64,000 nucleotides of DNA, from NCBI GenBank assembly GCA_037189525.1, contig JBBCJC010000001.1, positions 320,001 through 384,000 on the forward strand, written 5' to 3'. The notes under the pieces are model-generated. The model ran no database searches and was not told where the DNA came from. It saw nothing but the letters and a program-made list of their open reading frames with translations. A program made the position numbers and the translations under genes. Below are positions 312 to 61,173 of the stretch, in pieces; positions within the stretch are counted from its first letter, which is position 1, and the number at the start of each line of letters is the position of its first letter. The DNA comes from Gemmatimonadales bacterium. Lineage in GTDB: Bacteria; Gemmatimonadota; Gemmatimonadetes; Gemmatimonadales; GWC2-71-9.

Positions 312-1787
312 ATGTGGTCTTCCACCCTTACTCGAATCGTCGCGTCCCTCACCGTCGCGGCGGGTCTGCCAGCCGGTGTCGCGGCGGAACAGCGCGCCGT
401 CACGGCATCCACCTCCCCCGCATCGACCGTTGACTCGGCGGCCGTGCGACGGGCCAAGGCCGTCGACGCGCTCTTCACCCGCTGGCATACCCCCGATTCG
501 CCCGGCGCTTCGGTGGCGGTGATCTACGACGGCGCCGTGGTGCATGCCAAGGGATATGGCATGGCCAGCCTGGAACACGGCGTCCCGAACCAGCCGCACA
601 CGGTCTTCGACATCGCGTCGGTGTCGAAGCAGTTTGGCGCCTTTGCCATCACGCTGCTCGAGGCCGACGGCCGCCTGTCGCTCGACGACGACGTCCGCAA
701 GTACGTGCCCGAACTTCCCGACTTCGGACACGTCATCACCATTCGGCATCTGGTCCATCACACCTCCGGCCTGCGGGACTGGCCCGGCACGCTCCGGATG
801 GGCGGCTGGAGCTACGAAGATGTGATGTCCTTCGAGCAGATTCTGCGAATGGCCTACAACCAGAAGACGCTCAACTTCAAGCCCAACGACGAGCATGCCT
901 ACTCCAACACCGGCTACAACGTGCTGGCCGAGGTGGTCCAGCGGGTGTCGGGACAGAGCTTCAGGGAGTTTACCGAGCAGCGCATGTTCAAACCGTTAGG
1001 CATGTCGCGGACCCATTTCCACGACGACCATCGCGAGGTGGTCCGTGACATGGCCGAGTCGTACTCCCCCGATCGCGATCGTGGCTATCTCCATGTGACC
1101 TCGAATCTGACCGCGCTGGCGTCGAGCTCGCTCTTTACCACGGTCGAAGATCTGGCCAAGTGGGTGGGCAACTTCGAGACGGCCTCGGTGGGCGGACGGC
1201 GGGTCATCGACGCGATGCACCGCCGAGGCGTCCTCAACGCGGGCGACACCATTCCCTACGCCTTCGGGCAGAGCAAGGGCCAGTATCGCGGACTGGAGAC
1301 CTGGTCGCACGGCGGATCGTGGGCCGGCTACCGGAGCGTGCTGACCCGGTTCCCCGCGCAGCGGTTTGCGGTCATCATCCTCGGCAATACCTCCGACATG
1401 GCGCCGGGAACGCTCGCCAATCAGATCGCCGACATCTATCTGGGCGACAAACTCGGCCAGGCCGTTGCACAGTCTTCTCCCTCTCCGTCGCGCGAACAGA
1501 CGGCGCCGTGGAGCCCGACGGCCGCCGAACTTCGGGAGTTCGTGGGCGAGTACCGCAGCGACGAGTTAGAGACCTCATGGCACATCCGGCTGGTCGACGG
1601 CAAGCTGGTCTCGAGCCATTTCCGCCGGGGCGATTCGCCGTTTGTGCCGGCCGGCAAAGACCAATTCCGGTCGCAGGGTCCCGGCGGCGAGATCACCTTC
1701 CAGCGGGATCGCCGCGGCAAAATCACCGGGTTCGTGAGCAACCAGGTCCGGATCCGCCACTTCCTCTTCCGGCGGGTAGGCAACTGA
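312..1787 (+). CDS. Serine hydrolase, beta-lactamase class C-like, with signal peptide
   Basis: SVSK (SxxK), YSN and HGG motifs. ATG at 312 is followed by a signal-like N-terminus. Confidence 0.9.
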   Translation: MWSSTLTRIVASLTVAAGLPAGVAAEQRAVTASTSPASTVDSAAVRRAKAVDALFTRWHTPDSPGASVAVIYDGAVVHAKGYGMASLEHGVPNQPHTVFDIASVSKQFGAFAITLLEADGRLSLDDDVRKYVPELPDFGHVITIRHLVHHTSGLRDWPGTLRMGGWSYEDVMSFEQILRMAYNQKTLNFKPNDEHAYSNTGYNVLAEVVQRVSGQSFREFTEQRMFKPLGMSRTHFHDDHREVVRDMAESYSPDRDRGYLHVTSNLTALASSSLFTTVEDLAKWVGNFETASVGGRRVIDAMHRRGVLNAGDTIPYAFGQSKGQYRGLETWSHGGSWAGYRSVLTRFPAQRFAVIILGNTSDMAPGTLANQIADIYLGDKLGQAVAQSSPSPSREQTAPWSPTAAELREFVGEYRSDELETSWHIRLVDGKLVSSHFRRGDSPFVPAGKDQFRSQGPGGEITFQRDRRGKITGFVSNQVRIRHFLFRRVGN

Positions 1788-1824
1788 TCCAGCGTTCGAG
1801 CGCAGGCACAGCTCGCGTTTGACA

Positions 1825-1879
1825 TGGTGGAATACGGAGCAAGCTTAGGCAATCATCCCCTTGCTCCGTACTCCAACCA
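1825..1879. repeat. Inverted repeat or hairpin between convergent genes
   Basis: TACGGAGCAAG (1833-1843) and CTTGCTCCGTA (1860-1870) are perfect 11-bp arms, extended imperfectly by TGGTGGA/TCCAACCA. Confidence 0.75.
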
Positions 1880-1953
1880 GGATCGGATTCGTCTCTACCA
1901 CCCTCAGACATAACGGGCGACTCAGCGACTCGGACGGCCGGCAGTATCGAGTA

Positions 1954-3441
1954 TCAGCCCGGTTCGGACCGAGCCTGATCGACTGAGTCCGCAGCAAGCA
2001 CATCAATCGTCGCGGCGTAGTTACCATCCGGCTCCCGGATATGCTCGGCGCCGAACCGGGCCCATTGGAGCGGGGTCGCTTGATGCTCGTTGTCGCGGAT
2101 GCCAAGATCGGCGCCTGCCCACATCAGCATGGCCACGACCTCATCCCGGCCGGCAATCGCCGCGTGATGCACCGGCGTCGCGCCAAACTCGTCCAGGCCG
2201 TTGACCGGGAACCCGGCGCGGAGGCAGGCTCGGACCACCGCTACGTCTCCACGACGGGCGGCATCCCTGCACAGATGCAGATCTTCCGGCTCCAACTGCC
2301 GGAGCAACTCGGGCGACGCCAACCGTTCGGCGCGATCGGTATCGCCTGATGCGCACGCCTCGAGCAGCTGATCTACCGCCGAAAGCGGAACCGGGGTGGC
2401 GCCTGCCTGCTCGAGGATAGCGGCAAGCGCCTCCTGCCCGCTCCGACGGGCCAAGAGCCAGGCAGACCGGCCATCGGCTCGCGCGGCGCGCGGATCCGCC
2501 TCATGATCGAGCAGCAGCCGGATAGTCTCGGGACTTTGTCCGCGCCGCACGGCCACGTGCAGGGCCGTTTCGCGTTCGCCACCTGAGCGTACGTCCGGAT
2601 CGGCGCCGTGGTCCAGCAACCAGCGCAGCCCGCGACCCACCGCCGGATGGCGTTCGATATCCCAGTACCTGAGCAGGAAGTACAGCGGCGTATTGCCCCA
2701 ATCGCCGGTCTGGTTCAGATCGACGTCGAATTCGAGCAGCAACGCGAGCGCCTCCTCGTGAAAGCGCTCCGCGGCATGAAAGACCGACTCTCCGTCGGTC
2801 GGCCTGGCCCCCGCCTCGAGCAACATCCGCGCGATCCCGGGCACGTTCCACAGGCCGGTCACCGCATAGAGCGCCGGGAGGGTGTACTGTGTCGCCGTGA
2901 CATTGGGGTCGGCGCCGCGATCGAGCAGAAGCCTGGCACACGATGCAAGCTCCGCATTGAGCGCCGGGCTGCGGCCGTGAAAGGGCGAGAAGCACAACCA
3001 GCCCAGCGGCGACGAGGGCGGCGTCCCTTCCTGCCGTCGCACCGCATCGGGATCTGCATCGAGCAGATCGCGCAGCTCGCGCACCCGGCCGAGCGCCGCG
3101 GCCACGCCTGGACTGATCGCGACGATTCCCGGTTCCGTCGCCAGAATCTGCTCGGCCCGAGTCCGGTTGGGCTCCAGCACGGCATTCAGGAACGCGGTGA
3201 CCGCGTCATCGACCCCGCGAGACGCCTCCACTCGCGTGCGCAGCCGCGCCCAACTCGCAAACCCGTACTCCCTGGCCACCACCCGCTGGGCCTCGGTCAA
3301 CCGAAGGTCGGTACGTGGTCCCAGCACGGCCTCGACCCGCGCCACCGCTTCCGGTGCGCGCGCAAGAAAGGTGCGATGCAACGCTTTGGCTTCGTGCTTC
3401 AGGTGATCGAGGTGCGGACGTGCGGGAAGGTCCTTCGGCAT
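1954..3441 (-). CDS. Ankyrin repeat protein with N-terminal LPARPxLxxLKxxAK...AREYGFASW domain
   Basis: Repeated ankyrin motifs (LLDRGADPN, GNTPL, ETALHVAVRRG, GATPVHHAA). SD AAAGGGGG lies upstream. Confidence 0.9.
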   Translation of the reverse strand: MPKDLPARPHLDHLKHEAKALHRTFLARAPEAVARVEAVLGPRTDLRLTEAQRVVAREYGFASWARLRTRVEASRGVDDAVTAFLNAVLEPNRTRAEQILATEPGIVAISPGVAAALGRVRELRDLLDADPDAVRRQEGTPPSSPLGWLCFSPFHGRSPALNAELASCARLLLDRGADPNVTATQYTLPALYAVTGLWNVPGIARMLLEAGARPTDGESVFHAAERFHEEALALLLEFDVDLNQTGDWGNTPLYFLLRYWDIERHPAVGRGLRWLLDHGADPDVRSGGERETALHVAVRRGQSPETIRLLLDHEADPRAARADGRSAWLLARRSGQEALAAILEQAGATPVPLSAVDQLLEACASGDTDRAERLASPELLRQLEPEDLHLCRDAARRGDVAVVRACLRAGFPVNGLDEFGATPVHHAAIAGRDEVVAMLMWAGADLGIRDNEHQATPLQWARFGAEHIREPDGNYAATIDVLAADSVDQARSEPG

Positions 3442-3454
3442 GGCAACCCCCTTT

Positions 3455-3558
3455 CAGTAACGCCCGGTGTCCGCGTCGTTCGGGCCGAAAGAAGGTCGTC
3501 GATGTCCGGCGTCACTCCCAGGTGGACTGAGTCCTTTCCGCGGACCGGATGCGCCCTG
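3455..3558 (-). ncRNA. Candidate structured cis-regulatory 5' leader RNA of the ankyrin gene
   Basis: On the minus strand CAG-GGCGC-AU-CCGG-UCCGCG pairs with CGCGGA-CA-CCGG-GCGUU-A-CUG. Internal stems are GGAC/GUCC and GCCGGA/UUCGGC. The structure lies between the promoter and the SD. Confidence 0.55.
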
Positions 3559-3572
3559 ACACGCAATAGGGA

Positions 3573-3601
3573 AGCTTAGCGCGCGCCGCAGTGCCGGTCA
3601 A
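3573..3601 (-). promoter_or_regulatory. Sigma70-type promoter of the ankyrin gene
   Basis: TTGACC-17 nt-TAAGCT on the minus strand. Confidence 0.65.
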
Positions 3602-3658
3602 ACGACCGGGCAGGAAACCTCGTTATACTGCAAACGACTCGTCGAGGAACCGGAATCG

Positions 3659-4189
3659 ATGTCGCTGACAATCGAGCGTATTGCCACCACTGCTCTGTCG
3701 CAGAGCGCCCGCAACGCCATCCTCTCGCTGTGCAACGAGGCCTACGATGAGGACCTGACCGGGTACCTGAACGATATCGGCCCGGGCGTCCACCTCCTGG
3801 GCCGGGATGGCCCCGATCTGGTCTCCCACGTGATGTGGGTCGACCGCCGGCTCGAGCCCGGCAATCTGCCGTCGCTCAACACGGCCTACGTCGAACTGGT
3901 AGGTACGCATCCGGCGCATCAACATCGCGGCCATGCAACGGCCCTGATGCAGCGTCTGGCCACCGAAATCGAGTCCTATGATATCGGCGCTCTCTCGCCC
4001 AGTGACCCGGTCTTCTATGAACGACTGGGATGGGAGAGCTGGCAAGGACCGCTCCTGATACAAAGCCCGTCGGGAATCGAAGCCTCTCCCGATGAGGCCG
4101 CGATGATCCTCCGTTTGCCGGCCACGCCCTCCGCGCTCGACCTCACTGCATCGCTCGCCGTGAGTTGGCGGCCGGGTGAAATCTGGTAG
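3659..4189 (+). CDS. GNAT acetyltransferase, AAC(2')-I-like
   Basis: TAYVELVGTHPAHQHRGHA (motif A), FYERLGW, and C-terminal WRPGEIW resembling the DWRxGDxW end of AAC(2') enzymes. Confidence 0.8.
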   Translation: MSLTIERIATTALSQSARNAILSLCNEAYDEDLTGYLNDIGPGVHLLGRDGPDLVSHVMWVDRRLEPGNLPSLNTAYVELVGTHPAHQHRGHATALMQRLATEIESYDIGALSPSDPVFYERLGWESWQGPLLIQSPSGIEASPDEAAMILRLPATPSALDLTASLAVSWRPGEIW

Positions 4190-4259
4190 CAATCGACGAC
4201 GCAACCCCTCTCCGATGATGCGTGTCTAATCCTGGTTCCCTCTCGAACCAGGAGACCCC

Positions 4260-5615
4260 ATGCGTCGTCTCGTGCTCATCATCGGGCTCGGCGGGTTCAT
4301 CCTCGGGTGTGGCGCCCGACCCGGAACGCCGGCCGCGGCCGAGCTCTCCCCGAGTAAGGCGCCGGTCGTCGAACTGGCGCACGGTCGCTGGTACGATGGG
4401 CGCGGGTTCGTCACCAGAACGATGTACGTGGAGAACGGCGTTTTCCGTTCGGCCCGCCCGTCTCGCGTGGATTCAATCATCGATCTGCGCGGGGGATACG
4501 TCATTCCGCCCTTCGGTGACGCCCACACGCACAACTTGGACGGACCGTTCAACCTCGATCGGATCCGTGATACGTACGTCGCCGAGGGCACGTTCTATGT
4601 CGCGGTCCTGACGAACACGGCGAGCCGGACCGCGCCAATCCGCCGCCGCTTTAATCAGGCGTGCGACCTCGATGTTCTCTATGCCAATGGCGGCCTGACG
4701 TCGACGCTCAGTCATCCGTTCCTGGCGTACGAACCGCGCGCCATGAACCTGTTCGGCGACTGGCTGGCTCATGCGGACGCCATTCGCGCCAGCCGGATCC
4801 GTGAGAACGATGCCTACTGGTTCCTCAACAGCCAAGAGGACCTGGACGGGAAATGGCCGGCGATTCTGAGCGCAGAGCCCGATCTGATCAAGATCTTCCT
4901 GCTCGATGCGCGCGAATCACCGCCACCGACCCCGTCGACCGGCCTTCCGACCGGGCACGGACTCCGGCCATCGTTGGTTCCGGAGATCGTCCGACGAACA
5001 CACCAGCAGGGGAAGCGCGTCGCTGCACATGTCGAGACTGCCGCCGATTTCCGGATTGCCGTTGCCGGCGGGGTCGACATCCTCGCGCATCTTCCCGGAT
5101 ACGCGTTAGGCGCCGGCCCGGATGGCCGCTCCAACCTGGTTTCGGATCCGAGCCCATTCGTAATCACGGAGGACGATGCCCGGATGGCGGGCAAGCGGCG
5201 CATTGCCGTCACCCCCACCGCCCGCTGGACGTTCGGCGGCCAGGGCCCCGACTCGGCGGCGGTCGTCGCGGCGCGCCACGACCTGATGCGCCGGAACCTC
5301 GAGCGCCTGCGCGTCAACGGCGCGCGGATCGTGATCGGCTCGGATTGGTTCGGCCAGACCGCGTGGGGCGAAATCACCGCGCTCCGACAGGTGGTCGACT
5401 GGCCGGATGCCGACCTGCTGAGGATCTGGGCGGTCGAGACACCCCAAGTCATCTTCCCGGGCAGGAAGATCGGACGCCTCGAACCCGGCTACGAAGCCAG
5501 CTTTCTGGTCCTGGACGAGAACCCGATCGACCGACTGGACGCCTTGCGCACCATTCGGATGCGCGTCAAACAGGGGTGCGTCCTGAACACCGCCGAGAAC
5601 CGCCCACGAGCTTGA
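4260..5615 (+). CDS. Amidohydrolase family lipoprotein
   Basis: Lipobox ILGC, IDLRGGYVIPPFGDAHTH (HxH), GSD, and GRLEPGYEASFLVLDENP. Confidence 0.85.
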   Translation: MRRLVLIIGLGGFILGCGARPGTPAAAELSPSKAPVVELAHGRWYDGRGFVTRTMYVENGVFRSARPSRVDSIIDLRGGYVIPPFGDAHTHNLDGPFNLDRIRDTYVAEGTFYVAVLTNTASRTAPIRRRFNQACDLDVLYANGGLTSTLSHPFLAYEPRAMNLFGDWLAHADAIRASRIRENDAYWFLNSQEDLDGKWPAILSAEPDLIKIFLLDARESPPPTPSTGLPTGHGLRPSLVPEIVRRTHQQGKRVAAHVETAADFRIAVAGGVDILAHLPGYALGAGPDGRSNLVSDPSPFVITEDDARMAGKRRIAVTPTARWTFGGQGPDSAAVVAARHDLMRRNLERLRVNGARIVIGSDWFGQTAWGEITALRQVVDWPDADLLRIWAVETPQVIFPGRKIGRLEPGYEASFLVLDENPIDRLDALRTIRMRVKQGCVLNTAENRPRA

Positions 5616-19800: not shown

Positions 19801-21324
19801 CGCCGTCCGGGTATCCAGGCGGGCTCGGCCGCCGAGGACGCTACGCGGCTTGGTCCCGTCCTCGTGCTCGACCCGCCCCTGATAGGTCACGTTCTGCCAG
19901 GGACCGTCGAGACTGCCCGCCAAGCGCAACCGGCCGTCGAGCGCGACTGCCGGAGTAACCAGGCGGATGGTGCGCAAGTCGAGATCCGCATGGGGAATCC
20001 GGGTCTGGGCAAAGACCATACCCTCCGGGCCGCCTAACGCCAGGTCGCCCTCGATTGCCAGGCGGTTGTTCCCGCCGTCCGGCACCCGGGCGTCCTCGAA
20101 GAGCCAGTCGGCGCTGATGGTCATCGCGTCGAAGAAGCCGGTGACCTGGAGCGGACCGGTTATCCGCCCGACAAGCGGAAGGGTATCGAGAAACGGGCGG
20201 ACCATCTCCAGATCGAGCGACTGGAGATCGAGCGACAGGTCGCGGAAACCGAGCCCGCGGTAGACATCGACCAGCGCCACCATCCGGCCACGCACCCGGC
20301 TGCCGTCGCCCGCGACATCGAGATCGCGCACATCGTAGGCGGAGCGGCTCCCGGCCGGCGAACTCGCGATGACCTGTCCCCGTCCCTGCAGCGCGGGAAA
20401 GTTGGGCGAGATCCAGCGCAGGTCGACCAGATCGAGCGTCGGCGCATCGAGCCGGAAGTCGTACAGGATGGTATCGCGCGGCCAGTCGATCCTGCCGCCG
20501 CCCCGCACAATGGTGTTGGGCAGCGCGGCCCGCTCGACCTGGAAGAGCAAACTGTCTCCACCCTGCGTGAGAGTGGCCTGGAGGTCGCGCACCGCGATGG
20601 CCGGATCGCTGATCACCGTCGTCAGCGAATCGATCGCCATCGAGAACGGCGCGCCGTCGGGCGAGGAGATGGCCAGGCGCCGGAAGCGGGCGGTCAGCCG
20701 ATCCAAAGTGCGTTCGATCAGCAGCGCATCCTCGGGCCGCGCCGCCTGCTCGATCCGGCGGCCCGGCTTGGCCCGTTCCGCAGCAAGCGCTGAGTCTTTC
20801 TGGACCTGGGTGCGCAGCCGGCCATCGGGATTCCAAGGAAGCCGGATGGTGACATGGGCCCGGTCGAGCGCCAGATCCTCGACCAGTACCAGCGGCTTGG
20901 CCCGCTTGACGGTGTCGGTGGACGGAAGGCCCAGGCGGAAGATCTCTTCGTAGTTGAGCCGGCCGTTCCGATGCCGGACGATCTCGAGCCGGGCATCGCT
21001 GACCCGGGCATCCCGAAACACGAAGCGCCGGGCCAGAAAATCGCCGAAGCGGTATCCGACCTCGATGCGCGACGCATCCACCAGCAACTCGCCGGCCGTG
21101 TCACGGATCACGACGGAATCGAGCACCAGATCGCCCAGGAAGCTACCCTGAATCGCGCCGATCCGGATCGAGCCTTCGACCAGCCGAATCGATTCATCCG
21201 TCACCACCCGCGCCAGCAACGCTCGGCCCGGCGCCAGCGCCGTCAGCGCAGCAACCGTTCCGAACACCGCCGCCAGCACCGAGACGGCAAAGACGAAGAC
21301 GAATCGCGTCAGGCGGCGTAGCAT
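16852..21324 (-). CDS. tamB: TamB/AsmA-like translocation and assembly module protein
   Basis: 1490 aa with an N-terminal anchor, beta-rich repeats and a C-terminal DUF490-like region. Directly follows an Omp85 gene. Confidence 0.8.
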   Translation of the reverse strand: MLRRLTRFVFVFAVSVLAAVFGTVAALTALAPGRALLARVVTDESIRLVEGSIRIGAIQGSFLGDLVLDSVVIRDTAGELLVDASRIEVGYRFGDFLARRFVFRDARVSDARLEIVRHRNGRLNYEEIFRLGLPSTDTVKRAKPLVLVEDLALDRAHVTIRLPWNPDGRLRTQVQKDSALAAERAKPGRRIEQAARPEDALLIERTLDRLTARFRRLAISSPDGAPFSMAIDSLTTVISDPAIAVRDLQATLTQGGDSLLFQVERAALPNTIVRGGGRIDWPRDTILYDFRLDAPTLDLVDLRWISPNFPALQGRGQVIASSPAGSRSAYDVRDLDVAGDGSRVRGRMVALVDVYRGLGFRDLSLDLQSLDLEMVRPFLDTLPLVGRITGPLQVTGFFDAMTISADWLFEDARVPDGGNNRLAIEGDLALGGPEGMVFAQTRIPHADLDLRTIRLVTPAVALDGRLRLAGSLDGPWQNVTYQGRVEHEDGTKPRSVLGGRARLDTRTATLGLDADLTVDTLAFDGIRGSFPTLTLQGMVAGTLKMSGYLDALWVEGGLAGQIGNYRFIGRTSLEPPRLGADSLRVSFERANLAMLMPTGPVTSLAGQATLTGVIDSAVAPDAVVDLALRRSSVRSFVFDSAWARLAIRDSLITVDTAGIIWPGGGAYLAGSFGWAEPHQGSLKGTVAALNLAPFDSLAAELAGLDRAALIEEDLMSGRARGTFSLEGSLDRWNAVADIRLDSAAWLRNQVRLGTIQIQASGVAPDSLVMGLTLAVDTLASGKLRFADLEAGLLGTPARFDWNVRGASGTAARLAALGQWRAGADSIRVLQVDSLALGLLGRQWRLQRPAMFTVDSVTAADTVLIATDDGSGTIRLEGVLPGRNEGRAHLQASGISLRDIYALAQRDTAGIGGSLGVDVRVAGTMALPTFRGSATLTGPVVGQVKAPLVRAVFNYDDRLLQSNLSFWRTGRPILDIDARLPLDLSVGEVARRQIPGELVIRGQADSVDLAVIEALTPNLRGVVGTLALDAQVGGSWEAPRLAGQVTVADAALYVPGLGVGYGPMFGRVRLAGDSIVADSVVIRSDIGEARIGGAVRLERLTTPVLGLELSARDFLLIDVPEYLTFRATGDVALDGPLVRPVLSGSIRATNSVVYFADLLSKNVINLEDPANIDLVDTTALRAQGLGAQFQSRFLDSLTIRDLSVRVAQDVWLRSSEANVQLEGQVSVNKERRRAGRSEFRVSGELTVPRGTYTFRPGLGVARTFTVEQGTVRYFNTPDMNASLDLTARYVVRTVSGTTTGTADYPIIARITGTLLAPNLQLTSEPGRQQFPERELVSLLVFGTVSSGVRNAFEDQGRVVAALASKVLTSELERSLISSKDSPFDLVEISPGFAQGNTALATGGSVTRLSLGRQLTRRLFATLSLGGCVVEGLQVELNRRYLGASLEYRLHPTLKIQVAAEPVQSCLSQVAASLIRPSRYQFGADIKWDREY

Positions 21325-25183: not shown

Positions 25184-25726
25184 GTGAAGATCTATACTCG
25201 AACGGGCGACAAGGGGACCACCGGGCTCTTCGGCGGCGGGCGGGTTCCCAAGTCGCACCCGCGCGTGGCGGCCTACGGCGATGTCGACGAACTGAATTCC
25301 GTGCTCGGCGTGGTCCGCGCCACCGGCCCGGACCTGTTCGACCCGGAACTCGAACGCATCCAGCGCGATCTGTTCTCTATCGGAGGCCACCTGGCCACGC
25401 CCGAACCGGACAAGGTCAGAGCCGCGCTGGCCAAGGCAGACCTGGGTGAAGGGCGCATCGACGAACTCGAGCGGCTGATCGACTCGGCCGACGAACAACT
25501 CCCGCCGCTCCGGGCATTCGTCCTCCCGGGCGGAAGTCCCAAAGCCGCCCATCTCCACGTGGCGCGAACGGTCTGCCGCCGGGCCGAGCGCCATGTGGTC
25601 GCCCTGGCCGCCGAGGACGAGATTCCCGCCCTCTTCGTCAGCTATCTCAATCGCTTGAGCGATCTGCTGTTCACCTGGGCCAGGCTCGCCAACCACCACG
25701 AGGGACGCGGCGACATTACATGGTAG
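25184..25726 (+). CDS. PduO-type cob(I)alamin adenosyltransferase
   Basis: KIYTRTGDKGTT, YGDVDELNS, RTVCRRAER and YLNRLSD. Confidence 0.95.
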   Translation: MKIYTRTGDKGTTGLFGGGRVPKSHPRVAAYGDVDELNSVLGVVRATGPDLFDPELERIQRDLFSIGGHLATPEPDKVRAALAKADLGEGRIDELERLIDSADEQLPPLRAFVLPGGSPKAAHLHVARTVCRRAERHVVALAAEDEIPALFVSYLNRLSDLLFTWARLANHHEGRGDITW

Positions 25727-26814
25727 CCGGCACACGGATCGAGGTCCGCCACGCCACCGGACACTATCCGGTCATCATCCGGGCGGGCCTGCTGGACGAT
25801 CTAGCATTGATTGCCGAGGAGATCCTGCCGGGCCGGCGCCTGGTAGCGATTACCGACCGCAACGTGGCCCGCGCCGTCCCCCCGACCCTCAAGTGCCCGT
25901 TTCTGGTGGTGCCGCCGGGAGAAGGCTCCAAGACCCGGCGGCGCTGGGCCGATCTGACCGATCAGCTCCTCACGTTAGGCCTGACTCGGCACGGCGCGCT
26001 GGTGGCCGTCGGCGGGGGCGTCGTCGGTGACCTGACCGGGTTCATCGCGGCCACCTATCTCCGCGGCATTCCGTTCCTCCAGGTCCCCACCTCGCTGCTC
26101 GCCATGGTCGACGCATCGGTAGGCGGCAAAACCGGGGTCAACACGCGGCACGGCAAGAACCTGGTCGGCGCCTTCCATCCGCCGGCCGCCGTGATCGTCG
26201 ACCCGCTGGCGATCCGGTCGCTCCGAAGTGCGCACGTCCGGGGCGGCCTGATGGAAGCGGTCAAGCACGGCCTGGTGGCCGACGCCGCCTACTACGACTG
26301 GATTGCCGAGTCGACCCGGGCGCTCCTGGCGCGCGATGCCACCGCCGTGACCCGCCTGGTCGAAACCAGCGTCACCATCAAAGCCGACGTGGTGGGCGAC
26401 GACGAAAAGGAGGCCGGACGGCGCGCCATTCTCAACGCCGGGCACACCGTAGCCCACGCGTTGGAGCGCTGGTCGGGGTACCGTATTCCACATGGCGACG
26501 CCGTCGGCATCGGGCTCCATGTGGAAACCGTACTGGCCGAAGATCTGGGCCTGGCGCCGCAGGGTACCGCCGCGCTGCTCCAGCGGCGTCTCACTGCACT
26601 CGGCTTGACCCTGACGCTGCCGCCGGCGAGCGACGACGATGCGCTGCTCGAGGCGATGCACCATGACAAAAAGGTCCGGGACCACGCCATCCGCTTCGCG
26701 CTTCCGCGACAGCCCGGCGCCCTTGGTGCGCTCGCGGCGGACTGGACCACCGCCGTACCGGACGACATCGTTAGGCAATCGTTAGGCAGGGTCCGTTCGC
26801 TTTACGGCGCCTGA
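25720..26814 (+). CDS. aroB: 3-dehydroquinate synthase
   Basis: GGGVVGD, PTSLLAMVDASVGGKTGVN, LNAGHT and HGDAV. Confidence 0.96.
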   Translation: MVAGTRIEVRHATGHYPVIIRAGLLDDLALIAEEILPGRRLVAITDRNVARAVPPTLKCPFLVVPPGEGSKTRRRWADLTDQLLTLGLTRHGALVAVGGGVVGDLTGFIAATYLRGIPFLQVPTSLLAMVDASVGGKTGVNTRHGKNLVGAFHPPAAVIVDPLAIRSLRSAHVRGGLMEAVKHGLVADAAYYDWIAESTRALLARDATAVTRLVETSVTIKADVVGDDEKEAGRRAILNAGHTVAHALERWSGYRIPHGDAVGIGLHVETVLAEDLGLAPQGTAALLQRRLTALGLTLTLPPASDDDALLEAMHHDKKVRDHAIRFALPRQPGALGALAADWTTAVPDDIVRQSLGRVRSLYGA

Positions 26815-27051
26815 TCTTGTCCACAGCGCCGCCTCGGCATTATGGCGCAGCAAATCGTTGACAATCAATGAGTTATCTCACTTTTCCACGAGCATGTGGA
26901 TTACAGGATTTCGGCCCATGTTGACGAACATCGCAAGTCGTTGACTGCCTAACGAATCGCGATGTTGACGGCCTAACGCTATTGACGGTTCGCCCGGCCG
27001 ATCCCTAGATTGGATGCCGGTTTTCCTGAACCAAATCGCTGTTGTAACAAC
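26767..27051. promoter_or_regulatory. Repeat-rich control region with DnaA-like boxes upstream of the sigma factor
   Basis: TTGTCCACA at 26817, TTTTCCACG at 26882 and TGTGGATTA at 26895; five TTGAC motifs; direct repeat GTTGAC(T/G)GCCTAACG; promoter-like TTGACG-18-TAGATT at 26982-27011; palindrome GTTGTAACAAC at 27041. Confidence 0.55.
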
Positions 27052-27104: not shown

Positions 27105-28001
27105 ATGCGCACGTACCGCGATCGCCGGCCACGCTCGCTCGCCCGGTCTACCGCTGGTGGTTCCTTCGATCAGTACCTGCTGGACATTCGCAAGTTGCCG
27201 ATGATCACCGATCCCAAAGAGGAGATCCGGCTGGCCAAACGCGCCCAGAAAGGCGACGTCGACGCCATGGACCGGTTGGTGACGGCCAACCTGCGTTTCG
27301 TGATCTCGTACGTGAAGCGGTTCCAGGGCCACGGCCTCGACCTGGGCGAGCTGGTGGCCATCGGCAACGAGGGCCTGCTCAAGGCGGTCAAGAAGTTCGA
27401 CCCGGCCCACGGCGTGAAGTTCATCAGCTACGCCGTCTGGTGGGTCCGTCAGTGCGTCCTCAAAGCGCTGGCCGAACAGACCCGCACCGTCCGCATCCCG
27501 CTCAATCAAAACGCCGCCCTGCTCCGAATGGCCAAGGTCGAAAGCCTGCTCTCGCAGGAACTGGGACGCTCGCCGACCGACGCCGAGACGGCGCAGGTGC
27601 TGGGTGAGTCCGTCGATACGATCCGGTCGGCCCGGCTGGTCTCGACCGTGGAGATGTCGCTCGACGCCCCGGTCGAACGCAACGAATCGGGCTCGGCCAC
27701 CTTCGGTGAGCGGGTCACCGGTGCCGCCGGCGGTGAGATCGAAGACTTCGTCGATACCGGCCTGCAGCGGGAGTTTCTGGCCAAACTGTTCGAGACCTAC
27801 CTGACCCCGCGGGAGCGCCGGATCCTGGCGCTCTACTACGGCCTGGACGAAGGCTCCGAATCGCTCACGCTGGAAGGGATCGGCTCCCTGCTCGGCGTGA
27901 CCCGGGAGCGGGTCCGGCAGATCCGCGAACGCGCCTTCGAAAAACTCCGCAACTCGCCCGAAGTCCGCTGTCTTCGGGTTCCTCCGGCCGAGATGGCCTG
28001 A
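27105..28001 (+). CDS. RpoD/SigA-like sigma-70 factor lacking region 1.1
   Basis: LVTANLRFV, GNEGLLKAVKKFD, KFISYAVWWVRQ and TRERVRQIRERA. Confidence 0.95.
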   Translation: MRTYRDRRPRSLARSTAGGSFDQYLLDIRKLPMITDPKEEIRLAKRAQKGDVDAMDRLVTANLRFVISYVKRFQGHGLDLGELVAIGNEGLLKAVKKFDPAHGVKFISYAVWWVRQCVLKALAEQTRTVRIPLNQNAALLRMAKVESLLSQELGRSPTDAETAQVLGESVDTIRSARLVSTVEMSLDAPVERNESGSATFGERVTGAAGGEIEDFVDTGLQREFLAKLFETYLTPRERRILALYYGLDEGSESLTLEGIGSLLGVTRERVRQIRERAFEKLRNSPEVRCLRVPPAEMA

Positions 28002-40437: not shown

Positions 40438-41183
40438 GCCGTTCCTCCTCGGCGCAGTTCCTCCGCAAACCGATCGGGAAGATCACTCGTCAGGATTGCA
40501 CTTGCCGCTCTCTCCACCTCGTACTCGACGCGAATGAAATCGACCTCGAATCGCTCGGATCCGGCAGCGACGACGACATACCCAGCGCGCGGATCGCCGT
40601 CTTTCGGACGTCCCACGCTTCCCGCGTTGACATAGTGGACACCGTCGATAATGCGGTGCCAGGGCCGATGAGTATGTCCAAAAGCAATCAGGTCGCCGGC
40701 TCGCGCCCCGGCATGCGCAGCCATTTTCCGGCAGAAATCGTCCGGTCGATCCTCGGTCCAATACACCGTGTTGAGCATCGGGTTGCCGTGCACCAGAATG
40801 AGACGCTGACCTGCCGCATGACCACCTCGAATACTGACATCGATTCGAAAAGGCAGTGCCGCAAGACGCCGTTTCGTCTCGGCCGAGAGATGGCGTCTGG
40901 TCCAGTCGTAGCTCAGATGACTGGCCGCCTCCTGCTCAGGGTTCTCATAGCGGCAACCACAGTGCGAATGATCGAAAGCAACGGTGGAGTCGTAGTTCCC
41001 CGCGACACCAGCAATACCGCGTCGATCCAGCAATGCCACGACCTCGTTAGGCCACGGCGCATAGCCGACCAGGTCCCCGAGATGATAGATGACGGTATCG
41101 CGGTTCCGGCTGGCAATGTCGTCCAGCACGGCCTCCAATGCCGGGAGATTGGCATGAATATCCGAGATCAGCGTGTATCGCAC
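40434..41183 (-). CDS. Metallophosphoesterase (ars-cluster associated)
   Basis: ISDIHAN, LGDLVGY, GNYD, VHG, FGHTH and NAGSVGRPKDGD. Confidence 0.92.
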   Translation of the reverse strand: MRYTLISDIHANLPALEAVLDDIASRNRDTVIYHLGDLVGYAPWPNEVVALLDRRGIAGVAGNYDSTVAFDHSHCGCRYENPEQEAASHLSYDWTRRHLSAETKRRLAALPFRIDVSIRGGHAAGQRLILVHGNPMLNTVYWTEDRPDDFCRKMAAHAGARAGDLIAFGHTHRPWHRIIDGVHYVNAGSVGRPKDGDPRAGYVVVAAGSERFEVDFIRVEYEVERAASAILTSDLPDRFAEELRRGGTA

Positions 41184-45980: not shown

Positions 45981-47963
45981 TCAGCGCGCCAATTCGACCA
46001 ATGTCTGGTTGGTCCCCATGGCCAGGAGCGAACCGGCGGGGGTCTTGGTAAGGCCGACCAGGAAGACATCGGTCACAGGAGGGAGAGCGGTCCAGCGAGA
46101 CCCGTTGAACCGCAGCATGACGCCCTCGTGACCCACGGCGTAGTATTCGGTCGGACCGACCGTGGCCACGGCCCGGAGTTCGATGTCGGTAGGCGTCGGC
46201 ACCGGATACCAGCTGTGCCCGTCGAAACGGAGGGCGACCCCCGCCTCACCGACGGCCACGACATCCCGTGAGCTGGTCCCAACCACCGATCGCAGCCGCA
46301 GGAAAGTCGGCGCCGCCATCCGCTCCCAGGTCTCGCCGCGGTAGCGCAGCACGACGCCACTGTCGCCCACGGCAAAGACGTCTCGGCCGTTCACGCCCCA
46401 GATGTGACGGATGAAGGCGGTGGTGGGCGTCGCATGCAGCCGCCAGACCCCGCCGACCCGCTGGATGATGGTGCCGCGATCGCCCGCGGCAAAAACGGCA
46501 TCGGGGTCGGTCGCATCTGCCCAGACCGACCGCATCAACATCCGGGTGGGCGTCGGTTCGATCTGCCACTCCTCGCCGCGCTTGCTGAGCGCCATCCCGC
46601 TGTCGCCGACCACCAGGAGATCGCCGGAGGCGGTCTGCACCATCCCGTACAGATCGCGTCGAAGAAGCGGACCGACCCGCTCGAAGCCAGTGCCGGTCCG
46701 GCGCAGCAGCGTCCCGGCCCCGCCGGCCAGATAGAGCCGTCCATCCGCACCAACCGCCGACGCCGTCAGCAGCGGCGACGACTGCGAGAGCCGCCACCCG
46801 CCGGTCGATCGGGTCATGATGGTGCCGGCCCAGGCGACCGTCCAGAGCGTCCCGGACGGATCGAAGGCCGCCGCGCGCAGGTTCTCCAGCGTGGCCTGCT
46901 GGGGCGCCTGGGTCCAGGCAATGCCGTTGAAGCTGATCACCGCTCCCGTATTGCCGACCACGACGATGTCGCCCCGGTTCCGGCCCGCGATGGCAAAAAA
47001 ATCGGCCTTACTCGGCACGGGAACCTGTCGCCACGCCGTGCCGTCATAGTGGAGGACGGTGCCGCGGATCCCGACCGCAAAGACGTCGACCGGCGAGGTA
47101 CCCCAGAGGCCGAACAGCACCAGATGCGTCGGCGTTTCCATCATCCGCCAGGTGTTGCCGTCCCAGGTCTGGATCTCGCCGTTTTGCCCGCTGGTGAAGA
47201 GCTGATCCGGCGCCGTACCCCACACCGCCCAGAGCTCGGACGACTCGACACCCGGCATGGAACGCCAGGCACCCTCCTCCCGCGCAAACGCTACTTGCGC
47301 ACCAACGATGTAGACGTGATCGGCATCGAGGCCCCAGACATCCAGCAGCGCCTGCTCCGTCTCGAGCGAGAAGGCCCGCCAGGCTTGGCCATCGTAGTGG
47401 ATGGCCGCCCCACGCGCACCGACCGCATAGACATCGGTGGCCGAACTGCCCCATACCGCGGTGAGGTCCGCCGTGATCGGCGTCTCCATCTTCTGCCAGC
47501 TCTGCCCCGCATCCCGGGTCACCAGCACGACCCCGTCGGCGCCGACCGCAAAGATGGTGGACGCATCGGCGGCCCAAACACCGAGCAAGCTGGCATCGGT
47601 CAGTCCCTGCGCAGCGAGCGTTGCCTGGCGCGACGCGATGGGAGCCCGAACCTCGATTGCCGCGGTCCGGCGGCCGACTCGAAACGACGCCTCGAGATCG
47701 GTACGGCCCGGAGCGAGCGCCACCATCCGCGCCCCGGACAGGCCTAACACACCCGGATCCGAGACCCGCAAACTCATCGGTTGGCTGGGCTCGGCGCGCA
47801 ACGTCATGGTGTCGCCGGTCTCGAGCCAGAGCGCGGCGGGGAGCAGGGTCGGCACCACGTCGGGCAGCGGCGACCCGTCGGGTGCGGTAGGCTCGCGATC
47901 GAGACATCCGCCGAGCGTGAGCAGACACCACACCAGGACACCGGACCGTCGCATGCGCCTCAC
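45981..47963 (-). CDS. Lipoprotein with an Ig-like segment and 14 beta-propeller repeats
   Basis: Lipobox LGGC and 14 repeats of about 40 aa, L.xVWG.S..DVfAVG..G.il.ydG..W. Confidence 0.85.
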   Translation of the reverse strand: MRRMRRSGVLVWCLLTLGGCLDREPTAPDGSPLPDVVPTLLPAALWLETGDTMTLRAEPSQPMSLRVSDPGVLGLSGARMVALAPGRTDLEASFRVGRRTAAIEVRAPIASRQATLAAQGLTDASLLGVWAADASTIFAVGADGVVLVTRDAGQSWQKMETPITADLTAVWGSSATDVYAVGARGAAIHYDGQAWRAFSLETEQALLDVWGLDADHVYIVGAQVAFAREEGAWRSMPGVESSELWAVWGTAPDQLFTSGQNGEIQTWDGNTWRMMETPTHLVLFGLWGTSPVDVFAVGIRGTVLHYDGTAWRQVPVPSKADFFAIAGRNRGDIVVVGNTGAVISFNGIAWTQAPQQATLENLRAAAFDPSGTLWTVAWAGTIMTRSTGGWRLSQSSPLLTASAVGADGRLYLAGGAGTLLRRTGTGFERVGPLLRRDLYGMVQTASGDLLVVGDSGMALSKRGEEWQIEPTPTRMLMRSVWADATDPDAVFAAGDRGTIIQRVGGVWRLHATPTTAFIRHIWGVNGRDVFAVGDSGVVLRYRGETWERMAAPTFLRLRSVVGTSSRDVVAVGEAGVALRFDGHSWYPVPTPTDIELRAVATVGPTEYYAVGHEGVMLRFNGSRWTALPPVTDVFLVGLTKTPAGSLLAMGTNQTLVELAR

Positions 47964-55160: not shown

Positions 55161-55181
55161 CCTCCAGCGCGGCCCCGCCGA

Positions 55182-57393: not shown

Positions 57394-57535
57394 GTCGATC
57401 TCCTGCGATGTCTGCAGAACGGGGAAACGAGGCCGTAGTTGGCAGGGATGATGCCCCTCAAGCAAATTGCATCCGAACCCATCGACCGGCAAGTCTCGGT
57501 CCGTCCGGATAACGACTTTTTCACAGGTTATTCCT

Positions 57536-59773
57536 ATGAAATTCACCTCCTGGTGGATTCCCGCACTGTTGGCGGTGATACCGTTCACCCCTGAACCATT
57601 TCAGGAACCAACTCCGATCCGAGGTTACTCGGCGCAGGACTCGCGAATCCAGCGTGATTGGGAAGCCAAGTTCCAGGCAGTGCCGTCGACCGACAGCCTG
57701 CGGTCGTACCTTCGCACGCTGGCCGCGCGGCCTCAGTTCCTGGGATCACCGGGAGGCAAGCGCAACGCGGAGTGGCTGGTCGAGGTGTATCGGAGTTGGG
57801 GACTCGACGCCAAAATCGAAACGTTCGAAGTCCTCTTTCCGACGCCGAAGGAGCGGCGGGTCGAACTGCTTGCCCCGGTGCGCTTCACGGCCGCGCTTCG
57901 CGAACCGCCGGTGCGCGGCGACCACTCCTCGACCCTGCAGAGCGAGCACCTGCCGTCCTACAACGCCTATTCGATCGACGGCGACGTAACCGGCCCGCTG
58001 GTGTTCGTGAACTACGGCATCCCCGCCGACTACGATGAACTCGAGCGGCGCGGCATCTCGGTCAAAGGCGCCATCGTGATTGCCAAGTACGGCGGATCGT
58101 GGCGCGGCATCAAACCCAAGGTCGCGGCGGAACGCGGCGCCATCGGCTGCATCATCTACTCCGACCCGGCACAGGACGGCTTCGTGCAGGGCGACGTCTA
58201 TCCCGACGGCCCCTACCGGCCGCCGCATGGTGTGCAGCGCGGCAGCGTAGCCGACATGCCCCTCTACGCCGGTGATCCGTCGACACCCTTCGTCGGCTCC
58301 GTACCCGGCGTCACGCCGCTGCCGCTCGACCGGATCGAATCGCTCACCAAGATTCCGGTGCTGCCCATTTCGTACGCCGACGCGGAGCCCTTGCTGCGCC
58401 AGCTGGGCGGCGATGTGGTCCCCCCAGCCTGGCGCGGCGGCCTGCCGCTGACCTACAAGACCGGCCCCGGCCCCGCGACGGTCCGCCTCAAGGTCGCGTT
58501 CGACTGGAAACGGGTGCCGCTCTACAACGTGATGGTGACGATTCCCGGCACCGATGCCGCCGCCGAGTGGATTCTGCGCGGCAACCATCGCGACGGCTGG
58601 GGTGCCGGCGCCGAGGATCCGCTCTCGGGCACGGCGGCCCAGATGGAGGAGCTGCGCGCCTTTGCCCAGCTGCTCCAGCAGGGCTGGAAGCCACGGCGCA
58701 CCATCGTGTACGCCGCCTGGGACGGCGAGGAACAGGGCTTACTCGGCAGCACGGAGTACGTCGAAACCCATCGCGACGAACTCCGGGCCAAGGCCGTCAC
58801 CTATCTCAACACGGATTCGAACGGCCGCGGCTTCCTGAGCATGGGCGGTTCGCATTCGCTGGAGCGCTTCATCAACGACGTCGCTCGCGAAGTCCGCGAT
58901 CCCGAAACCGGCCTCTCGGTCTGGCAGCGAAACCAGGCGCGCGCCATCGCGAGCGGAGACGCCACCACGCGGCGCGAAGCCCGCACCCGCCGCGACCTGC
59001 GCATCGGCGCACTCGGCAGCGGGTCCGACTACACCCCGTTCCTGCAGCACGCCGGCATTGCCGCCTTGAACCTCGGCTTCGGCGGGCACGGGGGCTCCGG
59101 TATCTACCATTCGATCTACGACAGCTTCGAACACTACACCCGGTTCAACGACACCAACTTCGTCTACGGCCGAGCGCTGGCGCAGGTGGTGGGAACGGCG
59201 GTGATGCGACTGGCCGGCGCGCCGGTGCTGCCGCACCACTTCATCGGCATGGCCGACACCTACGGCCGCTACATCGATGAGCTCAAAGCCCTGCTGGTGG
59301 CCAGCCGCGAGGCGGCTCTGGAGCAGAACCGCCAACTCGAGGAAGGCGTCTTCGCGGCGGTTGCCGATCCGCGGTTGCCGCGCAAGCAACCGGACCGGGC
59401 TGCGGTTGCTCCGCATCTCAACCTGACTCCGCTCGACAACGCGCTGACGGTGCTCCAGACCGCCGCCGAGCGCTACGAGTCGGCATTGGCCCGCACCGCG
59501 CTGGACCGGCCGCGACCGGCCACCAACCGGGCCCTCCGTGAGGTGGAGTTTGCCCTGACCAGTACCGAAGGGCTGCCTCGACGGCCCTGGTATCGCCACC
59601 ACATCTATGCGCCGGGGTTCTATACCGGATACGGCGTCAAGACGATGCCGGGGGTGCGGGAAGCGATCGAACAGGGAGACTGGGCCGAAGCCGAACGGGA
59701 AGCCGCGCGGATTGCCGAGCGGTTGCTGGCCGCCGCCGCGGTCATCGATCAGGCGCGCGCCGGCCTCGACTGA
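57536..59773 (+). CDS. M28 peptidase, glutamate carboxypeptidase II-like (PA + TfR dimerisation domains)
   Basis: GNHRDGW, WDGEE, LGSGSDY, YHSIYD and RPWYRH. Confidence 0.93.
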   Translation: MKFTSWWIPALLAVIPFTPEPFQEPTPIRGYSAQDSRIQRDWEAKFQAVPSTDSLRSYLRTLAARPQFLGSPGGKRNAEWLVEVYRSWGLDAKIETFEVLFPTPKERRVELLAPVRFTAALREPPVRGDHSSTLQSEHLPSYNAYSIDGDVTGPLVFVNYGIPADYDELERRGISVKGAIVIAKYGGSWRGIKPKVAAERGAIGCIIYSDPAQDGFVQGDVYPDGPYRPPHGVQRGSVADMPLYAGDPSTPFVGSVPGVTPLPLDRIESLTKIPVLPISYADAEPLLRQLGGDVVPPAWRGGLPLTYKTGPGPATVRLKVAFDWKRVPLYNVMVTIPGTDAAAEWILRGNHRDGWGAGAEDPLSGTAAQMEELRAFAQLLQQGWKPRRTIVYAAWDGEEQGLLGSTEYVETHRDELRAKAVTYLNTDSNGRGFLSMGGSHSLERFINDVAREVRDPETGLSVWQRNQARAIASGDATTRREARTRRDLRIGALGSGSDYTPFLQHAGIAALNLGFGGHGGSGIYHSIYDSFEHYTRFNDTNFVYGRALAQVVGTAVMRLAGAPVLPHHFIGMADTYGRYIDELKALLVASREAALEQNRQLEEGVFAAVADPRLPRKQPDRAAVAPHLNLTPLDNALTVLQTAAERYESALARTALDRPRPATNRALREVEFALTSTEGLPRRPWYRHHIYAPGFYTGYGVKTMPGVREAIEQGDWAEAEREAARIAERLLAAAAVIDQARAGLD

Positions 59774-59800
59774 CCCTAACGACCCGGGCGTCGCGGGCCC

Positions 59801-61045
59801 TCAGCTCGCGGCGCCTAGGCCGGCCAGTCGGCCGGTCGCCCAGGCCCAGCTGAAGTTGTACCCGCCGATCGGCCCAAAGGCGTCCAGGATTTCGCCGCAG
59901 AGATACAACCCGGCCGCCCGCCGGCTTTCCATCGTGGCGGGGTGAATCTCACCCAAACCGACGCCGCCGCCGGTAACCTCCGCCTTCTTGTACCCCTCGT
60001 CACCGGTCCAGGGCAACGGATAGTCGGCGACCATCTGGACCAGAAGACGCCGCTCCTCCCGACTCAATTGCGACAGAGTCCGATCCGGCGGTACGCCCGC
60101 CTCCGCCAGCAGCCGCGCCGCCAGCCGATCGGGCAATTCGGCCCGCAACACGGTGGCAACCGCCTGCCGGGACTGGGCCCGGAGCCGTTCGTCCCAGGCC
60201 GCCGGATCGTCGCCGGTCCACCGCACCCGCAGCACCGCGTCGGATTGGCCCAGCAGACGAGAGCGGACCGCCAGATGCGAGACGTCGAGCGCCGCCGGAC
60301 CGCTGTAGCCCCGATGGGTAAAGAGAAAGCCGCCATCCGACTCCGCCGACTCGCCCCGCCAGGCGCCCACGATCCGGACCCGGCGCGACACGCCCGCAAG
60401 CTCCGCATGAACGGGTGGAGTGGCCGTGAGCGGGGTCAGCGCTGGGTAGGTGGGCACCATCCGATGACCCAGTCGCTCCGCAGCCGCGAGGCCGATCCCG
60501 TCGCTTCCGGTTTGCGGCACGCTGAGGCCGCCGGTCGCCAGGATGACGCGGTCTGCCGCCAGCGCGGTTCCTCCGTCGAGCTCCGCGCTCCACCCGGATG
60601 CAGTCGGCGCGAGGTTGCGGACCACCACGCCGAACCGGAAGGTGGCGCCGGCCGCCCGGGCTTCGGCCACGAGCCGGTCGCGCACCTCCCGAGCCCGGTT
60701 GGATACCGGGAACAGCTTGCCGGTTTCCTGCTCCAGCGCCAGCGGAATCCCCAGCGCCGTCTCGATGAACTGCCGCTGCGCATCGAGCGGCCAGCTGCCC
60801 AGCAGGCGATTGAGGGTGTGGCGGGACGAATCCGTCACGAACCGTCGCTCGGCCGCGACCGAGGGCAGCACGTTACACCGGCCACCGCCACTGATCAGGA
60901 TCTTCCGGCCGCCATCCGCGGTCCGCTCGAGCACGGTGACCTCCGCGCCGCTTCGGGCCGCGTGAATCGCCGCCATCAACCCGGCGGCCCCGGCGCCTAC
61001 GACCAGGACTCGGCGTTCAGCCACGGACGGGACTCGCAAGCTCAT
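59801..61045 (-). CDS. HI0933/BaiN-family flavoprotein
   Basis: GAGAAG, KILISGGGRCN, ATGG, FTHRGYSGPA, VTGGGV and GGYNF. Confidence 0.93.
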   Translation of the reverse strand: MSLRVPSVAERRVLVVGAGAAGLMAAIHAARSGAEVTVLERTADGGRKILISGGGRCNVLPSVAAERRFVTDSSRHTLNRLLGSWPLDAQRQFIETALGIPLALEQETGKLFPVSNRAREVRDRLVAEARAAGATFRFGVVVRNLAPTASGWSAELDGGTALAADRVILATGGLSVPQTGSDGIGLAAAERLGHRMVPTYPALTPLTATPPVHAELAGVSRRVRIVGAWRGESAESDGGFLFTHRGYSGPAALDVSHLAVRSRLLGQSDAVLRVRWTGDDPAAWDERLRAQSRQAVATVLRAELPDRLAARLLAEAGVPPDRTLSQLSREERRLLVQMVADYPLPWTGDEGYKKAEVTGGGVGLGEIHPATMESRRAAGLYLCGEILDAFGPIGGYNFSWAWATGRLAGLGAAS

Positions 61046-61083
61046 GAGGCCAGCACCGCATCGAACACCCCTTGGATCCAACG

Positions 61084-61126
61084 GAAAACGGCCACCCCGC
61101 CGAATCATCGTCGGCGTGGCGGCCGT
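61084..61126 (-). terminator. Intrinsic terminator
   Basis: Minus-strand ACGGCCGCCACGCCGA...TCGGCGGGGTGGCCGT followed by TTTCC. Confidence 0.65.
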
Positions 61127-61173
61127 GGGTTGCCGGATGCCTAACCGCGGGCATCCCGGCCAATATCACGCGG

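Follow-up and report, generated by a model that had tools for sequence, protein, structure and literature searches.

A short DNA word dispersed through Gemmatimonadales chromosomes, megaplasmids and phages, and its candidate readings

We analysed a 64,000-nucleotide stretch of the genome of a Gemmatimonadales bacterium (GenBank assembly GCA_037189525.1, contig JBBCJC010000001.1, positions 320,001 to 384,000; hereafter the window) in which the octamer CGTTAGGC, with the core GTTAGGC, recurs in and between genes. An initial annotation had listed eleven copies of the heptamer GTTAGGC or its complement GCCTAAC; all eleven coordinates were correct and the window holds no further copy. Nine of the eleven are the full octamer, compared with 1.13 ± 1.06 in 100 dinucleotide shuffles, none of which reached nine. 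By the gene calls made here eight copies lie inside genes, and those at 26947, 26971 and 61139 lie outside. The codon frames are those first described: six sites read TTA GGC (Leu-Gly; 995, 5105, 20032, 25974, 26781 and 47742), one GTT AGG (Val-Arg; 26770) and one CCT AAC (Pro-Asn; 41046), and seven of the eight genic sites are read in the sense direction. The codons had been called rare, and genome-wide 0.65% of Leu codons are TTA and 2.2% of Arg codons are AGG. The sites apart from a cluster at 26.8-27.0 kb are as follows.

994 to 1001, plus strand: CGTTAGGC in a beta-lactamase-fold/peptidase gene, read CCG TTA GGC (Pro-Leu-Gly)
5104 to 5111, plus strand: CGTTAGGC, read GCG TTA GGC (Ala-Leu-Gly)
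20032 to 20039, minus strand: CGTTAGGC on the sense strand of a TamB-like gene, read GCG TTA GGC
25973 to 25980, plus strand: CGTTAGGC in aroB, read ACG TTA GGC; absent from the compared genomes G005 and G013, a typical turning-over site
41045 to 41052, plus strand: CGTTAGGC, read antisense as G CCT AAC G (Pro-Asn) in a low-scoring gene call
47742 to 47749, minus strand: the variant TGTTAGGC, read GTG TTA GGC; an enriched one-off form
61139 to 61146, minus strand: GGTTAGGC, intergenic; probably background in this genome

GGTTAGGC occurs seven times in the genome compared with 15.5 expected and is a background variant without enrichment.

Genome-wide excess, turnover and spacing

The whole assembly (4.65 Mb, 3,747 genes by our own gene calls; labelled G000 below) contains 337 copies of CGTTAGGC, 176 forward and 161 reverse. 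Coding sequences held 238 copies compared with 22 ± 5 in 20 synonymous shuffles, far above the codon-preserving background by which the initial annotation had proposed to judge the motif, and CGTTAGGC was the top-ranked 8-mer in G000 genes by observed/expected ratio. Chance or codon usage as the cause of the excess was rejected by the dinucleotide and synonymous shuffles. All four open frame classes were enriched (144, 6, 13 and 75 copies compared with 6.5, 2.5, 3.2 and 10 expected). When reclassified, the 337 copies comprised 235 in coding sequence, 44 that supply a stop codon, 31 ends of integron attC sites and 27 others; 47 of 1,312 TAG/TAA stop codons lie in CGTTAGGC. The word is imposed on DNA regardless of frame, strand or replichore. 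Divergent promoter regions held only five copies in 155 kb, which argues against an ordinary transcription-factor site, and sites were few in low-GC windows, in genes that are atypical or strongly biased, and in four mobile-like contigs. Outside CGTTAGGC, TTAG occurs at about one third of expectation. TGCGCA, GCTGCGCA and GCTTGCTGCG are likewise over-represented in G000 genes (the 10-mer 181 times compared with 13), with no clear polarity.

Individual sites turn over quickly. In codon-aligned orthologues, 3 of 13 G000 sites were shared with G005 (84% nucleotide identity), 2 of 6 with G013 and 0 of 1 with G239, and the 45 own sites of G239 were all unshared with G000. A pair at the aroB end accounts for two of the shared sites in both the G005 and the G013 comparisons; outside the cluster 1 of 11 sites was shared with G005 (control 0.21), a small sample. 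Unshared sites align without gaps, and gains are in-place substitutions. The tripeptide [ASTP]-Leu-Gly was written as the word at 144 of 3,635 positions in G000, 15 of 117 in G013 and 23 of 47 in G239, with the tripeptide counts themselves little changed (51 vs 47 in G239, 125 vs 91 in G013). The word arises by point substitution at tolerant positions. Repair-driven conversion from depleted one-off neighbours was also considered and was rejected because the depletion is mostly a general avoidance of TTAG/TTAA.

Spacing was examined where the word is dense. Within 210 kb of G239 only 31 gaps were shorter than 150 bp compared with 55 ± 6, making it the most even of 42 equally common 7-mers. The plasmids of the cultured Gemmatirosa kalamazoonensis KBS708, of which 850 of 2,147 kb were used, contained 563 copies where 2.3 were expected, with a pair correlation of 0.46-0.64 over the range 75-300 bp, and the word ranked as the most even among 111 control 8-mers. 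Evenness was not seen in G000 (coefficient of variation 1.10), which is too sparse to show it. Sites have fewer neighbouring copies than expected within about 75-300 bp. Helical phasing was rejected for the close pairs, which are mostly codon-multiple tandem repeats; tandem arrays on the KBS708 plasmids, tried as iterons, proved to be low-complexity repeats with partly converted units.

The sigma-factor promoter cluster

Four copies of the word, together with further elements, lie between the 3' end of aroB and a sigma-factor gene.

25720 to 26814, plus strand: aroB, 3-dehydroquinate synthase (TIGR01357 above cut-off)
26769 to 26776, plus strand: cluster site A, aroB 3' end, in the rare GTT AGG (Val-Arg) frame
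26780 to 26787, plus strand: cluster site B, aroB 3' end, read TCG TTA GGC, 11 bp past site A
26817 to 26903, no strand assigned: three DnaA-box-like 9-mers between the two site pairs
26947 to 26954, minus strand: cluster site C, upstream of the sigma-factor promoter
26971 to 26978, minus strand: cluster site D, ending 3 bp ahead of the -35 hexamer
26982 to 27011, plus strand: sigma-70-type promoter TTGACG-18-TAGATT, conserved in the genus alignment
27105 to 28001, plus strand: RpoD/RpoS-like sigma-70 factor with regions 1.2, 2, 3 and 4

The sigma-factor orthologue was single-copy in all 30 Gemmatimonadales genomes tested. Across the genus we compared 20 of 22 genomes, leaving out two that lack a whole aroB locus. 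At least one aroB-end site was present in 20 of 20 loci and both in 14; at least one site upstream of the promoter was present in 19 of 20 and both in 12; and a further near-match lies in the -35/-10 spacer in 14 of 20. Site A, one member of this conserved cluster, uses a frame seen only six times genome-wide. Because the cluster is kept within the genus and absent outside it, it is probably a genus-level co-option.

Outside the genus the cluster position is occupied by TAAC followed by a CRP- or DnaA-like element, and this element abuts the -35 of the sigma gene. In motif-poor relatives, elements of the form GATGTGGA(T/A)AA, similar to the DnaA-like boxes, stand before the -35 of the orthologue; such elements also lie upstream of dnaA. 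Repeated TCCACA / GTNGAC-type elements were seen between aroB and the sigma gene across the genus (window 26815-26990 and orthologous loci). An origin of replication, oriC, was also tried as an identity for the cluster and was rejected, as both dnaA and the minimum of the skew lie on a different contig and the 20 kb around dnaA contains no site.

Lineages, megaplasmids and phages

The initial suggestion of a lineage-specific DNA signal was supported, with genome-wide enrichment seen in some Gemmatimonadales lineages among the genomes surveyed. In a phylum survey of 251 genomes, rich meaning at least 100 copies, this level was reached by 5 of 5 members of the genus and 8 of 54 of a second family (up to 3,896 copies in 4.0 Mb), and by none of 109 other genomes of its own family or 80 genomes outside the order; G085, G204, G179 and G124 (unpublished) entered only as motif-poor rows. 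All 22 genomes of the genus were rich (145-1,971 copies each), as were 3 of 8 genomes of a third Gemmatimonadales family in a separate sample. The highest density, about one site per kb, occurs in scattered genera of the other two families, and rich and poor genomes interleave in the sigma-factor tree (for example G131, 452 copies, with G138, 17). The two KBS708 megaplasmids hold 778 and 701 copies compared with 20 and 19 of the reversed control. The one-off variants tolerated also differ by lineage: G000 accepts C/T at both ends, G239 is relaxed at the first position, and KBS708 keeps a strict core but has T at position one. No alternative word stood out in motif-poor genomes, a weak test that covered 10-20 kb loci only. 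Matches to the word in low-GC metagenomes were set aside as a separate repeat phenomenon: the heptamer GCGTTAG(G/A) repeated in tandem, in contigs of 44-54% GC from other organisms (L475, L526, L542, L365). DNA near-identical to G000 is present in soil and sludge metagenomes.

Phage contigs were chosen for holding a close pair of sites, so that their share says nothing about phages in general. Five contigs counted whole had 18 copies in 49 kb, 43 in 41 kb, 35 in 46 kb, 16 in 42 kb and 6 in 14 kb, and a sixth viral locus had 13 in 17 kb; fewer than one copy was expected by background in each of four contigs checked. The word-rich contigs are tailed phages with copies in terminase and portal genes and in stop codons, at host-like density and with variant spectra resembling those of the hosts. 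The integrase of phage G278 clusters at 90% with a Gemmatimonadales protein, and phage G277 shares stretches of 74-78% nucleotide identity with KBS708 plasmid 1. The word-rich phage G279 (L825-L827) carries PolA, primase, clamp and helicase genes together with FolE, QueC and QueE genes, whose predicted products suggest 7-deazaguanine DNA modification; no integrase was found among the open reading frames scanned on this contig, which is 70% complete. Chromosomes, megaplasmids and phages of these hosts carry the word, with a lineage-specific one-off tolerance. A search for phage terminases in five hosts was empty. A duplicated 53 kb stretch of KBS708 plasmid 1 (L343, NZ_CP007129.1:1-50000), with phage-like genes related to the IMG/VR contig G277, is probably a prophage.

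Candidate readings of the word

To account for this pattern, a protein must read the word in double-stranded DNA whichever way it is oriented, with local saturation. Our leading though tentative proposal is that CGTTAGGC acts, unmethylated, as a self word, which a putative sequence-specific double-stranded-DNA-binding protein reads inside the cell. Bound sites would protect linear or newly entered DNA or hand it to recombination, an action like that of Chi but operating without polarity and without AddAB. Alleles with a site might then come through DNA exchange more frequently. Such a molecular drive would fix rare, T/A-rich codons in DNA of 66-73% GC, and phages that carry the word would benefit. 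In the genus the same reader may have been co-opted at the sigma promoter, where four to five sites flank the -35 and the DnaA-like boxes. A fuller scheme appears doubtful as a whole: in Gemmatimonadales lacking AddAB, a protein would read an unmethylated, orientation-independent word about every kb and spare or recombine the DNA bearing it, phages would mimic the word in host-matched dialects, the protein would double as a regulator of the sigma promoter, and the word would derive from attC ends, so that cassettes count as self.

Several observations weigh against an intracellular reader. No such protein was found among the candidates tested against word load; ComEC, ComEA, pilin count, a FimT-like pilin, a stand-alone pilin, IntI and HU/IHF did not track the word. 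The distribution of AddAB speaks for the proposal, an adjacent AddAB-like pair being present in 0 of 20 genomes with at least 72 sites/Mb, 4 of 7 with 32-55/Mb and 15 of 53 motif-poor genomes, but the pattern is phylogenetically non-independent, AddAB is missing from most motif-poor genomes as well, and a single long PD-(D/E)XK match occurs in each of four dense genomes. One weak lead to the reader is a UvrD helicase that carries a DEDDh exonuclease insertion: it is present in the rich genomes G000, G013, G239 and G040 and was not found in the poor G138 and G095, but neither was it found in the motif-rich G131, and its family is large (at least 1346 clusters). None of 25 loci outside the genus, 11 motif-rich genomes included, had the word within 420 bp upstream of the sigma gene, and the first TAAC of the cluster is ancestral, so that part of its conservation may stem from another element. 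Among the phages, four annotated motif-rich contigs have integrases, and prophage residence could explain their words under an uptake model; G279 is 70% complete and a putative phage of a motif-rich host; and among the 361 viral loci listed by three scans for close pairs seven had at least five separate sites, one of them a second view of the same contig. Finally, the low-GC islands of G000 persist with 4 sites in 190 kb, and its four mobile-like contigs with 2 sites in 124 kb compared with about 9.

Among the alternatives the main one is a DNA uptake sequence, in which a pilus or periplasmic receptor prefers CGTTAGGC, biased transformation and homologous recombination accumulate it, and density differences reflect transformation rate. 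We regard this as a real possibility, though a less probable one. DNA uptake sequences (DUS) and uptake signal sequences (USS) are described as non-palindromic, on both strands, evenly spaced at up to about 0.9-1 per kb, frame-biased and low in recently acquired DNA (PMC2817400). CGTTAGGC matches most of these shared properties, being non-palindromic, present in both orientations, evenly spaced at up to about one per kb, of point-mutation origin and with dialects, and being low in atypical and strongly biased genes. As to acquired DNA, it is low in the islands and mobile-like contigs of G000 and at host level in phages and megaplasmids. G000 has genes for ComEC, ComEA, PilMNOQ and pilins (DprA, ComM, RadA and PilT were recognised by motif regular expression only), but the competence machinery is universal in the order, motif-poor genomes included. 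When six pilins were rescanned with a ComP profile none scored above cut-off, a major pilin coming closest (E 0.003). The grouping of FimT-like pilins does not reflect motif load, and the stand-alone pilin, at first promising, was rejected on 80 genomes; a second pilin had no match in five genomes. Close inverted pairs of the terminator type amount to a handful outside attC sites, individual sites are not better kept than controls, and the tripeptide gain is small. The host-level density in phage genes and the conserved promoter cluster also speak against uptake: an outer-surface receptor gives no reason for the cluster, which points to a cytoplasmic reader. Where a host uses an uptake sequence, its temperate phages can bear such words too, phage HP1 being an example for which our search found nothing, and phage carriage therefore shifts the odds between the intracellular and uptake readings without settling them. 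An uptake preference may have begun as a way to harvest gene cassettes, since attC sites already end in the word; in Vibrio, integrons acquire cassettes from DNA taken up by transformation (PMC12614218). Binding of the word by a nucleoid-organising or SMC-related protein, with purifying selection keeping the density and no drive, is unlikely. It would account for even spacing at a few hundred bp, for the presence of the word on all replicons and for the conserved cluster, but density varies 30-fold among relatives and is at background level in sister genera, the word is not tracked by HU/IHF copy number, helical phasing was not seen, and there is no gap in sites at the terminus.

The remaining alternatives fared worse. 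An integron by-product, in which IntI or an attC host factor recognises dispersed GTTRRRY-type boxes, seems to us very unlikely as a present cause. The attC sites in G000 cassette arrays run from GCCTAACA to CGTTAGGC, the word being one attC end, and the other end supplies the enriched variant TGTTAGGC; identity with the commonest attC core is unlikely to be chance, and this coincidence may record where the word came from. The hairpin RYYYAAC...GTTRRRY in a cassette array was confined to 31 genome copies, with none among the 11 window copies or the other 306. Strong IntI-type matches occur in many motif-poor genomes, IntI was not found in the rich G005, G013, G029, G036, G037 and G131, the intI of G000 (G000:C2:2376-3380) is frameshifted in the assembly, and attC ends also use CGTTAGAC, which is not enriched in genes (1 vs 11). 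IntI was accordingly rejected as the present reader, load not following IntI and arrays occurring in poor genomes too. A housekeeping methyltransferase site of the Dam, CcrM or HIP1 kind, enriched by methyl-directed repair or a methyl reader, is more improbable still. GCCTAAC has the shape of MmeI-family sites, clusters beside DnaA boxes recall GATC at the dnaA promoter, and an order-wide type IIG-like adenine methyltransferase was present in 33 of 35 genomes. That enzyme occurs in rich and poor genomes alike with no separating residue beyond shuffled labels, was not found in the rich G013, and was rejected as reader together with N6/N4 and C5 methylases, none of which tracks the word; G239 has no C5 or N6/N4 methylase match (Dam-type PF02086 lay outside the profiles used), and one-off neighbours of the word are not consistently depleted. 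5-Methylcytosine is poorly detected by SMRT (single-molecule real-time) sequencing, so the KBS708 methylome bears on adenine methylation: despite the copies on its megaplasmids the word is missing there, the only motifs being RGATCY, ATGCAC and CCAGN7TCA (PMC3974934). With the methylase surveys, this leaves the adenine-methylation form of the methylation-site option first proposed unsupported. A polar motif like Chi or the FtsK orienting polar sequence (KOPS), flipping at 26-27 kb, we consider next to impossible. The annotated counts on either side (5 of 6 GTTAGGC to the left, 4 of 5 GCCTAAC to the right) are correct, but the flip is weak (Fisher p = 0.08) at a post hoc cut, and the caveat of confounding with gene strand was well placed: the predominance of sense-read genic sites plus one promoter cluster explains the split. 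The window lies wholly within one replichore, so the split is not origin/terminus polarity; GC skew is negative along the entire contig and flips near dnaA on contig C2 and near a dif-like site on contig C3. Genome-wide, CGTTAGGC was on the leading strand in 162 of 299 cases (54%, p = 0.17), while KOPS GGGNAGGG, already present in G000, was skewed in 546 of 636 (86%), and a search for PF12705, the AddAB/RecB-type nuclease, gave no match in G000 (98% complete). Polarity of CGTTAGGC is refuted.

The preferred reading of an intracellular self word can be set beside known systems. Few genome-wide words this dense are understood, namely two uptake-sequence families, Chi, KOPS, GATC/GANTC and HIP1, and CGTTAGGC fits none fully. 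It resembles the DUS of Neisseria (GCCGTCTGAA) and the USS of Pasteurellaceae (AAGTGCGGT) in abundance, even spacing, use of both strands, non-palindromic form and frame bias, but is shorter (7-8 bp), lies outside Proteobacteria, is patchy among sister genera, and has few terminator pairs, poorly conserved sites, host-level phage density and a conserved promoter cluster. As several features of those families are absent or uncertain in it, we do not class the word as a DUS or USS. Like the Chi of RecBCD/AddAB it is a genome-wide 8-mer and a plausible self mark copied by phages, but it is not polar and the densest genomes show no AddAB pair. It shares with HIP1 (GCGATCGC) of cyanobacteria and with GATC/GANTC of Dam/CcrM a highly iterated, frame-independent, lineage-patchy distribution with clusters at some promoters; unlike these it is not palindromic, nor is it adenine-methylated in the one available methylome (KBS708). 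The letters are identical to those of the integron attC R' box (GTTRRRY), of which 31 G000 copies are true ends, but about 90% of copies are single and dispersed without a hairpin partner, the specificity is narrower, and load is independent of IntI. In the openly available papers covered, none of the matches listed described CGTTAGGC as a genome word by title or abstract, and our search returned no report of an uptake sequence or over-represented octamer in Gemmatimonadota; the passages covered of a 2026 epigenome preprint contained no such word.

If the word were a true uptake sequence it would be a third independent origin and the first outside Proteobacteria, and if the intracellular reading is correct it would be a self mark that needs no methylation and is copied by phages. 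In either case sister genera ranging from background to about one site per kb offer a natural experiment on molecular drive, the word can serve as a host-assignment marker for uncultured phages, and the cultured type strain KBS708 with public SMRT data makes the readings directly testable.

Some neighbouring features of the assembly were also recorded. LigD, Ku and DUF72 genes lie beside the UvrD-exonuclease gene (G000:C1:419486-422395) within G000:C1:415190-423088 (L887), and the neighbourhood of the latter gene in G013 and G239 still includes DUF72 and an alpha/beta hydrolase. The type IIG-like methyltransferase and a helicase are at G000:C1:475758-480913 (L111:9758-14913) and look vertically inherited in the order; an HmaB-type DNA adenine methylase (PADLOC) is at G000:C1:507052-510066 (L112), in a low-GC island. 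A DtxR-family repressor is present, and its upstream region has no copy of the word. The dif-like site G000:C3:765945 lies at the GC-skew maximum, and the replichores look unequal in the assembly. A large chromosomal integron is represented by at least 34 homogeneous attC sites of about 135-142 bp, located at the start of G000:C1, C2:1-3400, C4, C7, C12, the end of C13, C16 and C5:157846.

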